DNA of 64,000 nt from a virus. Lineage: Duplodnaviria; Heunggongvirae; Uroviricota; Caudoviricetes. Both the position numbers and the translations under genes were made by a program. Below the pieces are notes generated by a model. The model saw only the letters and a program-made list of their open reading frames with translations. It did not search any database and was not told the DNA's origin. Below, piece after piece: positions 14,494-16,862 of the stretch. Numbering within the stretch: the first letter of the stretch is position 1; each line of letters begins with the position of its first letter. The stretch lies in the IMG/VR virus record IMGVR_UViG_2778261375_000003. One strand, 5' to 3'.

Positions 14494-15864
14494 GTGCTAA
14501 TGTCTGCATCCCCTCTTGAATCCATGCCAAATTCCCTTAGTGCAGAACAAGCTGTACTTGGTGGCTTAATGCTTGATAACTGCCGCTGGGATGAAGTTGC
14601 AGATCGTATAGTTGCTGATGATTTTTATACCAGTGCTCATCGTGAAATTTTCAGTGAGATGGAGAGGTTATTAAGTCATGGCAAACCGATTGATTTGATA
14701 ACACTTGCTGAAGCACTTGAACAGAACGGTAAATTAGAACGCGCCGGTGGTTTTGCGTACCTTGCGGAGATGTCAAAGAACACGCCCAGCGCGGCAAATA
14801 TTTGTGCTTATGCGGATATCGTTCGTGAACGCGCGGTTGTTCGTGAAATGATTTCCGTCGCAAATGAAATAGCCGAAGCTGGATATGCGCAGGATGGCAG
14901 GGGCAGCAATGAATTGCTGGATATGGCCGAGCGCCGCGTTTTTGAAATAGCTGAAAAACGACAAAAGAGCGGTAGTGGTCCAAAAGATATCGCCAGCATT
15001 CTCGATGCAACGGTATCTCGCATAGAAGAGTTGTTTCAGCGACCGCATGATGGTGTAACGGGGCTTGATACCGGATTTACCGACCTCAATAAGAAGACGG
15101 CAGGACTTCAGCCGTCCGATCTCATTATTGTCGCCGCCCGCCCATCGATGGGGAAGACCACGTTTGCGATGAATCTCGTCGAAAATGCCGCAGTCCGTAA
15201 CGATAAGCCCGTATTGGTTTTTAGCCTTGAGATGCCGAGCCACCAGCTGATGATGCGCTCACTGGCTTCTCTTGCACGCGTTGATCAGACTCGTATTAGA
15301 ACGGGGCAACTTAACGACGATGATTGGGCGCGGGTTTCTGGCGCAATGGGTATTCTGTTGGACAAGCAGAATATTTTTATTGATGACTCAAGCGCCCTGA
15401 CGCCGACAGAGCTACGTTCCCGCGCTCGTCGTGTTTATAAAGAAAATGGTGGTTTGAGCATGATTATGATCGACTACCTGCAACTTATGCGCGTCCCCGA
15501 GCTGCAAGATAACCGAACGCTGGAAATTGCCGAGATTTCTCGATCACTTAAAGCGTTGGCGAAGGAATTACAAGTACCGGTGGTGGCATTGTCACAACTT
15601 AATCGCTCGCTTGAACAGCGCGCGGACAAACGACCGGTAAATTCAGATTTACGTGAATCAGGAGCAATTGAGCAGGACGCAGACCTGATCATGTTTCTGT
15701 ATCGCGACGAAGTTTATCACCCGGATAGCGAAATGAAGGGCATTGCCGAGGTAATTATCGGAAAGCAACGAAATGGCCCAATTGGCACGGTGAGATTGGC
15801 TTTTAACGGCCAATACTCACGGTTTGATAACTATGCCGGTGCTGACTGGCAAGAGGATTATTAA
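14494..15864 (+). CDS. ban: DnaB-like replicative helicase
   Basis: 456 aa with DnaB N-terminal domain, Walker A ARPSMGKTTF and RecA-like C-terminal motifs. Confidence 0.9.
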   Translation: MLMSASPLESMPNSLSAEQAVLGGLMLDNCRWDEVADRIVADDFYTSAHREIFSEMERLLSHGKPIDLITLAEALEQNGKLERAGGFAYLAEMSKNTPSAANICAYADIVRERAVVREMISVANEIAEAGYAQDGRGSNELLDMAERRVFEIAEKRQKSGSGPKDIASILDATVSRIEELFQRPHDGVTGLDTGFTDLNKKTAGLQPSDLIIVAARPSMGKTTFAMNLVENAAVRNDKPVLVFSLEMPSHQLMMRSLASLARVDQTRIRTGQLNDDDWARVSGAMGILLDKQNIFIDDSSALTPTELRSRARRVYKENGGLSMIMIDYLQLMRVPELQDNRTLEIAEISRSLKALAKELQVPVVALSQLNRSLEQRADKRPVNSDLRESGAIEQDADLIMFLYRDEVYHPDSEMKGIAEVIIGKQRNGPIGTVRLAFNGQYSRFDNYAGADWQEDY

Positions 15865-15887
15865 TGCAATGGAATGAGGAAAAGCCG

Positions 15888-16862
15888 ATGAACATCCTGA
15901 TCATTGGGCGAAAATTTGAAGCCATCAGTGATGTGAAAACATATACGGAAATGTGGGCTTATAACCTGGCATGCGCCTTTAGTGAGGCAGGGGTAACATT
16001 GCAATACCATCGTCCATATTCCCCTGGCGTCGAAAGCCCCGAGGATTATGTTGAAGCTGTGTTGACTGCTGCGACCGCATGTTCTGCGAAGGCCATTTTG
16101 GCACCAGGATTGAGGTATTTTACTACGGTACCCAGGGAAATAGGCATGCAACTGTGTCGCCGATTCTCTGGATGGGTAGCCCAGGTATATGACGGTTCTA
16201 TGCTGGATTCAGCACCAGTCGATATTACTTTTACTGTCCGCGATGATACCTGGCGGTACCTGGATAATCCCGGTCGGTTAGAGCGTCATAATCGCTTTAA
16301 CAAACATGTTGGATGGGCAGCGAATCAGGAACTTTTCCATCTGGAAACCAAAACAGACGATGTTCTGCGTATTTTTGTAGACCACGCTGCATTTGATGTT
16401 AGTGGGTTTGATCACTCCTTAAGTATCCTTATGAACCTTCAGCGCCTGGCCGTTCCGTATGAGGCCAGAACGTTGACCGATGACGGATTGATTACCATTG
16501 ATCCGGGGAATATATCGGTAACCCCATACAGACGGACTCCGGTACCAGCAACCGAATTTGCAGCTGAATTGCGTAAGAGTGACGTTTTTATTGTTACGCA
16601 TCCCGAAAGCCTTGGATTAACTGTTCTTGAGGCGGCAATGTGTGGGGCGTTGATATTAACGCCGCCCGATTGTCTTCCGCCGGATCGCCTGGCTTTGGTG
16701 AACCATATGGTTATCAAGTCGCGGATTGATTGGGATGAGGTTATTGCTCGCGTTGATCGCGTGAAAAATGCTGAAAAGGTCCAGTGTCACACCTGGTCGG
16801 CAATCGCGGAAAAGATGCTTGATACGTTTATCACCCAGAAACCGTCGCGAGGTAACGGATAA
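15888..16862 (+). CDS. Glycosyltransferase-like protein (GT-B fold, GT4-like)
   Basis: C-terminal ESLGLTVLEAAMCGALILTP resembles the GT-B EX7E motif; begins at or just after the ban stop. Confidence 0.45.
   Translation: MNILIIGRKFEAISDVKTYTEMWAYNLACAFSEAGVTLQYHRPYSPGVESPEDYVEAVLTAATACSAKAILAPGLRYFTTVPREIGMQLCRRFSGWVAQVYDGSMLDSAPVDITFTVRDDTWRYLDNPGRLERHNRFNKHVGWAANQELFHLETKTDDVLRIFVDHAAFDVSGFDHSLSILMNLQRLAVPYEARTLTDDGLITIDPGNISVTPYRRTPVPATEFAAELRKSDVFIVTHPESLGLTVLEAAMCGALILTPPDCLPPDRLALVNHMVIKSRIDWDEVIARVDRVKNAEKVQCHTWSAIAEKMLDTFITQKPSRGNG

Follow-up and report, generated by a model that had tools for sequence, protein, structure and literature searches.

The window analysed here is a 64,000-nucleotide (nt) stretch of a tailed-phage genome (Caudoviricetes; IMG/VR virus record IMGVR_UViG_2778261375_000003), and the open reading frame (ORF) under study, which starts at the stop codon of the DnaB-like helicase gene ban, is by sequence identity and position dbn ("downstream of ban") of phage P1 and glt of phage P7, to all appearances a universal gene of the P1 backbone. 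Adjacency, natural gene fusions, and co-occurrence across phage genomes show that its predicted product, Dbn, and the putative transferases PmgQ, PmgO, and PmgP make up one conserved module. We propose, tentatively and giving it somewhat less than an even chance, that this four-enzyme module modifies the phage's own virion proteins, which we regard as the most likely acceptor. The gene and its glycosyltransferase label have been public since 2004, and RefSeq already labels individual module proteins as transferases; what is added here is the module-level link between dbn and pmgO, pmgP, and pmgQ, together with the structural-operon context of the cassette elsewhere, neither of which we found described in the searchable literature. 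The genes on which the argument rests are, in window coordinates:

15864..16862, plus strand: dbn (P7 glt), GT-B, GT4-like retaining glycosyltransferase (predicted) of 332 amino acids (aa) from the ban-overlapping ATG or 324 aa from the ATG at 15888, with EX7E at E248/E256.
22798..23460, plus strand: pmgO (P7 hdmB), sialyltransferase/Maf-like (MptE-like, DUF115) putative glycosyltransferase, from Pfam, PHROGs, and profile matches.
23358..23984, plus strand: pmgP (P7 hdmC), pmgO paralogue of the MptE-like fold family, from Pfam and alignment with PmgO-like proteins.
23966..24658, plus strand: ppp, lambda-type Ser/Thr phosphatase (Pfam Metallophos, E 9e-16).
24655..25356, plus strand: pmgQ (P7 hdmD), GT8-like GT-A glycosyltransferase with an invariant DLDT (DxD), from alignment A4, profile, AlphaFold2 (AF2), and Foldseek.

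The Dbn family comprises 31 clusters by a word-indexed search and 417 representative clusters by a profile search (E ≤ 1e-3), and the gene contexts described below are those of about 20 loci out of the 417 clusters. In a P2-like phage (L010) whose Dbn homologue is 47% identical, all three flanking genes have homologues in the window, mapping to 22870-23436, 23448-23981, and 24655-25332 (pmgO, pmgP, and pmgQ) at 42%, 51%, and 39% identity, respectively. The same contiguous order, O-P-Dbn-Q, is found in the cultured Escherichia phage EP_H11 (OP688485, L173), where a PmgP-like ORF (6400-7002; 47% identical to P1 PmgP), unannotated in GenBank, stands between the annotated PmgO-like and Dbn-like genes. 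A PmgQ homologue follows the Dbn homologue within about 25 nt in L003, L096, and L098-L105, the two lie close together in L006, L097, and L176, and a PmgO-like gene is often nearby; overall, a Dbn homologue sits directly beside PmgQ and PmgO/PmgP homologues in at least six unrelated phage lineages. Two natural fusions join members of the set, namely PmgO::Dbn (P0069, 522 aa; PmgO part 28% identity, E 6e-23) and PmgQ::PmgO (L098 8978-10243, one 421-aa ORF). Among 50,697 phage records, Dbn occurs in 22 and PmgQ in 32, and every one of the 22 Dbn records also contains PmgQ; these 22 amount to about three independent cultured lineages (P1-like phages, EP_H11/IME392, and Stenotrophomonas jumbo phages), to which the metagenomic lineages are extra. 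In P1 the module is split, with dbn after ban and pmgO-pmgP-ppp-pmgQ 6 kb downstream on the same strand, past an inverted block of tail genes, and ppp takes the place that belongs to Dbn where the cassette is contiguous.

In other phages the cassette repeatedly lies among genes for the virion. It begins at the portal gene's stop codon, downstream of terminase, in L010; it follows a lambda-type terminase and portal in L098; and it is placed between a gp6-like head-tail connector gene and a head-completion gene in L097, between capsid and tail genes in L003, where it is accompanied by a GT8-like gene and an FkbM methyltransferase gene, and between the tail sheath and tail tube genes in L105, a phage with a ClpP-type protease, an E-type capsid, and a Mu-like baseplate. 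In L176 the PmgO::Dbn fusion heads a series that continues with another GT8-like gene, a PmgQ-like gene, and an FkbM methyltransferase gene and lies directly upstream of head-completion, gp10-like, and tail-completion genes, and in phage D3 and its relatives a PmgO homologue is immediately 3' of the major head gene. In L098 the cassette is followed (10240-11369) by genes for a TylF-type sugar O-methyltransferase and a PIG-L-type N-acetylglucosamine (GlcNAc) de-N-acetylase; this pairing of a GT4-like enzyme with PIG-L is reminiscent of BshA/BshB and MshA/MshB, a hint, by analogy, that GlcNAc may be the sugar transferred by the Dbn-type enzyme of that phage. There are exceptions, including a T4-like marine phage in which the Dbn homologue lies beside the DNA polymerase gene and the EP_H11 cassette, which is located among small unannotated genes. 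The Dbn family is also present in strictly lytic jumbo and T4-like phages, so a role in the lytic cycle is required.

Two observations on D3 (L179) stand apart from these. Its PmgO-like match (5855-6388, within 5691-6409) covers the annotated orf6.5 and orf7, which suggests that one gene has been divided in two, either in the annotation or through a frameshift, and orf12 and orf13, tested as candidate members, have no BLAST similarity to the cassette proteins.

The identity of the window gene is established over the whole ORF (100% coverage), with nucleotide identities of 97.0% to P1 dbn (AAQ14048) and 98.3% to P7 glt (AAQ07543) and about eight amino-acid changes in Dbn relative to P1. The gene was found in 18 of 18 matching P1-like phage records, and its position is that of dbn, directly after ban in the C1-controlled tRNA-tci-ban operon and convergent with gene 5; P1 Dbn and P7 Glt share this position between ban and gene 5 and differ from the window gene merely as alleles. 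Existing annotations read "function unknown, possible glycosyltransferase" (P1), "putative glycosyltransferase" (P7), and "glycosyltransferase family 4 protein" (RefSeq). The original prediction, made from the DNA letters, had called the ORF glycosyltransferase-like, and this agrees with the predicted GT-B fold and the invariant EX7E pair described below, but it missed the identity with the annotated dbn/glt and the idea is not new. It also overlooked the partnership of Dbn with three further enzymes, and glycosylation of virion proteins was not among the functions it offered. It had also held that a universal P1 backbone gene of known unrelated function would speak against it; the gene does belong to the backbone, and it has no known unrelated function. 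From its substitution pattern dbn is clearly judged a genuine functional gene under selection and no chance ORF, with a ratio of nonsynonymous to synonymous substitution rates (dN/dS) of 0.10 against P1 and 0.11 against P7, a median of 0.11 over 748 allele pairs, and no disrupted copy among the 64 full-length ones in P1-like contigs.

The AF2 model of Dbn, built with 22 homologues, has a predicted local distance difference test score (pLDDT) of 92.4 and a predicted template modelling score of 0.88 and consists of two Rossmann-like domains, which places the modelled protein in the GT-B fold class. The best Foldseek matches (sucrose-phosphate synthase, MshA, GlgM, PimB', and BshA; E 1e-9 to 1e-7) are all retaining GT4/GT5-type enzymes at 10-14% identity. 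The motif ESLGLTVLEAAMCGALILTP (residues 248-267) includes the EX7E signature E248-x7-E256, in line with the GT-B type motif that had been noticed in the C-terminal half, and this Glu pair is kept without exception in the 22 close and the 48 diverse homologues that were aligned. The 48 diverse members also agree throughout in one Phe, one Gly, and the Asp belonging to a DH motif, and almost throughout in GW.A, H, and TH; the family's own signature motifs are GWAAD, IxVDH, and THxES. In PHROGs, Dbn falls in phrog_2518 (E 3.6e-239), annotated as a family of unknown function, and NCBIfam gives a weak match to a sucrose-phosphate synthase domain and nothing else. Formal membership in GT4 is partial, EX7E being present and the Pfam threshold being missed. 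A pseudoenzyme reading of Dbn was considered and rejected, as EX7E is invariant and dN/dS is 0.1.

As to the wider family, a scan of viral contigs with the close alignment of Dbn (A1) returned P1-like loci only, the 48-sequence alignment (A2) was too diverse for pattern scanning and its subset A3 was used instead, and the genome-contig scan by one narrow pattern gave three loci, which says little on frequency in bacteria. One family member (P0120, 620 aa) has two Dbn-like domains in tandem. A Dbn-like subfamily of about 520-630 aa (P0128, P0138, P0142, P0145, P0150, P0154, P0157, P0158, P0166, and P0171), whose context comes from one 2.9-kb contig, has a conserved C-terminal extension of about 200 aa that has no Pfam match and could be an acceptor-binding domain.

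The three partner proteins bring the number of glycosyltransferases predicted for P1 to four, of three different folds. PmgQ has no Pfam match, but in its alignment (A4, 26 homologues) DLDT, GDQ, SYK, and HGxPRP are invariant, its profile matches the Skp1 alpha-galactosyltransferase 6mw5 in the PDB (E 1.5e-6) and also GlyE and glycogenin, and its AF2 model (pLDDT 94.2) retrieves GT8 GT-A enzymes with Foldseek (6mw5, glycogenin, GlyE, WbbM, and LgtC; E ~1e-8 to 1e-7). PmgO and PmgP have sub-threshold Pfam MptE-like matches (E 4.9e-5 and 3e-4, respectively) and both match phrog_4603 "alpha-2,3-sialyltransferase" (E 5e-74 and 2e-5). Their joint profile (A5) reaches Campylobacter Cst-II/Cst-I at E ~1e-3 and the Maf flagellin glycosyltransferase 5mu5 at E 5.5e-3; with these GT42 and Maf enzymes they have GxGPS and (S/N)SG...A...G...L.G.D motifs in common, although the matches are weak. 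Escherichia coli K-12 produces CMP-Kdo (Kdo, 3-deoxy-D-manno-octulosonate) and not CMP-sialic acid, and the donor of PmgO/PmgP would therefore differ from that of Cst-I/Cst-II. A 19-residue hydrophobicity window detected no membrane-spanning segment in Dbn, PmgO, PmgP, or PmgQ (maximum 1.55, below the usual threshold).

Both P1 operons that encode the module (ban and pmgN-pmgQ) carry C1 operators, and the sites are conserved in the window:

11673..11702, plus strand: Oban, the C1-controlled divalent operator, with promoter P1ban, both of the tRNA-tci-ban-dbn operon; no difference from the sites annotated in P1.
21701..21719, plus strand: LPpmgL, the late promoter upstream of pmgL-pmgM-(pmgN-pmgQ) in the P1 annotation, one mismatch in the window.
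22641..22657, minus strand: Oppp (Op83), the C1 operator controlling the pmgN-pmgO-pmgP-ppp-pmgQ operon in the P1 and P7 annotations, one mismatch in the window.

We now put forward a hypothetical mechanism for the module. From its sequence and model, Dbn is predicted to be an active glycosyltransferase, soluble and cytoplasmic, with the GT-B fold and of the retaining GT4-like type, and we propose that it transfers sugar from a host nucleotide-sugar, for which UDP-hexose or UDP-GlcNAc would be the likeliest donors. Together with PmgQ, PmgO, and PmgP it would build a short mixed oligosaccharide during lytic growth, with at least one virion protein as the acceptor, so that the particles would be O-glycosylated like those of some mycobacteriophages. 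We would expect an accessory effect, on particle surface properties and on immune or receptor interactions, that is dispensable for plaque formation. In published work, dbn scored as non-essential in a CRISPR interference (CRISPRi) screen of P1 (PMC10695390), and in-frame P1 deletions of dbn, pmgO, pmgP, ppp, and pmgQ gave infectious virions, plating being normal for those of dbn, pmgO, pmgP, and pmgQ (Gonzales et al.; PMC9024508 Table S3). Dbn, PmgO, PmgP, and PmgQ are not in the list of virion proteins (PMC9024508), which fits enzymes rather than structural components. The literature found on the function of the four genes consists of essentiality and expression tables only, and a search for glycosylated capsids of Gram-negative phages with sialyltransferase-like genes returned nothing relevant.

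We favor virion proteins as the acceptor because the cassette is repeatedly inside late structural operons, occurs in strictly lytic phages, and is accompanied by sugar O-methyltransferases; the placement in structural operons is circumstantial support. Virion proteins are favored also because the nearest solved relatives of PmgQ (the Skp1 galactosyltransferase, GlyE, and glycogenin) and of PmgO (Maf) act on protein-linked glycans. The late promoter LPpmgL upstream of the pmg genes is counted for a late role. According to the account of Freeman et al. (2023) that is given in PMC11600133, tandem glycosyltransferase and O-methyltransferase genes of mycobacteriophages modify capsid and tail-tube proteins.

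Several points weigh against virion-protein glycosylation. We know of no report of glycans on P1 particles, and the P1 virion proteome paper does not mention glycosylation. In P1 dbn itself is in an early, replication-type operon and not among structural genes, and a gene that lies within a structural operon may be a moron with expression of its own. A Dbn homologue adjoins an MptE-like gene in a bacterial kps-type capsule locus, and this homologue shows that enzymes of the Dbn family are likely able to act on polysaccharide. GT4, GT8, and WaaZ-like families also make up the pathway for the core of lipopolysaccharide (LPS), which is the P1 receptor, and the donor and acceptor cannot be read from sequence. 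For the profile and structure check that the original prediction had asked for, the predicted structure is GT-B as described above, but the Pfam Glycos_transf_1 (PF00534) match to Dbn scores 23.7 bits against a gathering cutoff of 26.4 (E 3.7e-5) and covers the C-terminal domain only.

The capsule-locus homologue and the use of the same families in the LPS core are also what speaks for the strongest of the alternatives, that the target is a glycan of the host envelope, such as LPS core, capsule, or some other lipid-linked glycan, which the four enzymes would modify at the cytoplasmic membrane face, with the effect of altering receptors and so excluding superinfecting phages or keeping progeny off debris. 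We consider this unlikely, if still a serious contender. With C1 operators on both P1 operons the genes should be silent in lysogens, and within one lytic cycle fresh LPS would not be able to replace the receptors already on the surface. In at least six other phages the cassette is in late structural operons and not near int/att, the usual site of conversion genes, and the family occurs in lytic phages as well; moreover, the four proteins lack a membrane-spanning segment and no flippase or membrane partner was seen among the neighbor genes examined. Receptor masking through surface polysaccharide, suggested at the outset, is a conceivable role, but C1-repressed expression in P1 and the late structural operons elsewhere suit it badly.

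It is quite improbable, in our view, that the module acts on some other target, either a host protein or small molecule in takeover or counter-defence, or a free glucan that it would both prime and extend, on the model of a GT8 resembling glycogenin that works with a GT-B resembling glycogen synthase. The top structural neighbors do include GT4 enzymes acting on small molecules (BshA, MshA, and a tetrahydrobiopterin glucosyltransferase) and glycogen synthases, with glycogenin for PmgQ; L098 combines its Dbn homologue with a PIG-L deacetylase, an arrangement known from the BshA/BshB and MshA/MshB pathways; and a KAP NTPase (nucleoside triphosphatase) gene lies near the cassette in the P2-like phage L010. 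However, a set of four distinct transferases, with sugar methyltransferases besides, suggests an oligosaccharide as the product and not a single-sugar adduct, there is no phenotype hinting at takeover, and PADLOC gave no match for Dbn, PmgO, PmgP, PmgQ, or Ppp at E ≤ 0.01, for which reason a defence-system reading was dropped.

P1 DNA is routinely cut by restriction enzymes, which counts against glycosylation of phage DNA as a protection from restriction or other nucleic-acid defences. This suggestion of the original prediction we regard as very improbable, because the P1 deletions of dbn, pmgO, pmgP, ppp, and pmgQ showed "normal restriction" on EcoA, EcoB, and EcoK hosts (type I systems only; PMC9024508 Table S3), because known phage DNA glycosylation requires a ThyA-family enzyme making 5-hydroxymethylcytosine (5hmC), 5-hydroxycytosine (5hoC), or 5-hydroxymethyluracil (5hmU) (PMC13326640) and no T4 gp42-like hydroxymethylase was found in the window or in P1 1-48000 by a single-sequence tblastn of low sensitivity (best E 1.7), and because the phages with the cassette in a structural operon include small temperate ones of the lambda-, P2-, and Mu-like kinds.

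Returning to virion-protein glycosylation, its broadest form would have P1 and scattered lambda-, P2-, Mu-like, and jumbo phages of Gram-negatives decorating their virion proteins with a phage-built, four-enzyme oligosaccharide, PmgO/PmgP possibly adding Kdo or another ulosonic acid; stated so fully it is somewhat doubtful. If it is true, virion glycosylation extends from actinobacteriophages to enteric phages. Through the module link, four orphan P1 genes, three of which were "putative morphogenetic" genes of unknown role, become one testable hypothesis, for which mutants lacking each single gene are available. If P1 particles carry phage-made glycans, this bears on how immune systems, mucus, and bacterial surfaces see transducing and therapeutic phages, and mycobacteriophages would not be alone in glycosylating their virions.

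The surroundings of dbn in the window follow those in P1, with the order tRNA-Asn, tRNA-Thr, a CAT-anticodon tRNA, tci genes, ban, and dbn. The features next to dbn are:

14494..15864, plus strand: ban (DnaB-like helicase, 456 aa), directly upstream of dbn, from the ORF and the P1 annotation.
15227-15254: P2dbn, predicted internal promoter inside ban (P1 annotation; site conserved).
15611-15643: P1dbn, predicted internal promoter inside ban (P1 annotation; site conserved).
16884..16910, no strand assigned: symmetric GC-rich hairpin with A and T runs on its flanks, from folding; it probably terminates transcription from both sides, separating dbn from the convergent baseplate gene 5.
16910-17542, minus strand: baseplate gene 5 homologue, convergent with dbn, from the ORF and the P1 annotation.

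The first ATG of dbn and the TAA stop of ban have one base in common (TAATG), as in the start at or just after the ban stop that had been predicted for an ORF of 325-332 aa; the longer form is indeed 332 aa, whereas the shorter, from the second in-frame ATG at 15888, is 324 aa and not 325. A GAGGA Shine-Dalgarno sequence (15876-15880) lies 7 nt upstream of the second ATG, at whose position all non-P1 Dbn homologues begin. The upstream ATG likewise has a good Shine-Dalgarno sequence (AAGAGGA, 15851-15857), so that sequence alone cannot settle the start codon. The P7 record (AF503408, L001 5136-5999) begins glt at an internal codon (287 aa); judged by the model, with this start the N-terminal Rossmann domain would lose its first beta-strand and its first helix, and the P1-style start is a better fit to the fold and to the homologues.

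The consensus terminator scan found no terminator-like site between ban and dbn. It overlooked the hairpin after dbn because the T-run sits inside the stem, and it was folding that revealed it (-21.8 kcal/mol, z -3.4, for the 63-nt stretch 16863-16925). The lack of a terminator after ban, the conserved operator and promoter, the tRNAs, and the hairpin after dbn mean that co-transcription of dbn with ban fits the predicted layout. The placement of dbn in the tRNA-ban operon that had been proposed is borne out by the three tRNAs, the conserved Oban/P1ban, and the uninterrupted ban/dbn junction. The tRNA at 14139-14214 is called tRNA-Met (CAT) by ARAGORN and tRNA-Ile2, read after lysidine modification, in the P1 record.

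More widely, window positions 10665-28388 run collinear with P1, at ~98.4% identity. In the pmg region, PmgM (22056-22634) has a sub-threshold VRR-NUC nuclease match, and the match of Pap (26993-27499) is to the HAD phosphatase domain found in polynucleotide kinase/phosphatase (E 4.5e-12) and not to a classical acid phosphatase. A stretch of about 7.9 kb without equivalent in P1 (28388-36330, between the pmgT and pmgU regions) looks like lambdoid-type cargo; its predicted products are a PAPS-reductase-like protein, a DUF551 protein, and two proteins of the Ead/Ea22 kind. P1 1-3347 corresponds to window 46622-49959 and P1 9750-21539 to window 51271-63061, with about 1.3 kb of differing sequence between them (49959-51271), and the window has no counterpart of the EcoPI res-mod locus of P1 (3.35-9.75 kb in P1 coordinates, the IS5 carried by that P1 strain included).

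Compared with known systems, Dbn resembles the CAZy GT4 enzymes BshA, MshA, PimA, PimB', WaaG, and sucrose-phosphate synthase, but at just 10-14% identity and with a small size (324 aa). There is no sequence similarity between Dbn and the T4 alpha- and beta-glucosyltransferases (T4 beta-gt tblastn E > 0.8), and no hydroxymethylase partner was found. The module also differs from Gtr-type O-antigen conversion (GtrA flippase, GtrB GT2, and GtrC GT-C) in having no integral-membrane transferase or flippase, and its folds are GT-B and GT-A, unlike the GT-C fold of GtrC. To the O-glycosylation of serine-rich-repeat adhesins (GtfA/B, Gtf3/GtfC, GlyD/GlyE, and Asp2) the resemblance is at the level of fold only, with no SecA2/Y2 system or serine-rich substrate identified. 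The Dbn relatives resemble the mycobacteriophage cassettes of clusters F and O, as these are described from Freeman et al. (2023) in PMC11600133, in that both have tandem glycosyltransferases together with a sugar O-methyltransferase; the hosts here are Gram-negative and the enzyme families are different ones (GT4-like, GT8-like, and GT42/Maf-like), and the likeness drawn here is one of gene arrangement. In the relatives L003, L010, L097, L098, L105, and L176 the genes are inside the virion structural operon. P1 differs in that its genes are split, with dbn in the ban operon and pmgO, pmgP, and pmgQ adjoining tail genes downstream of the late promoter.

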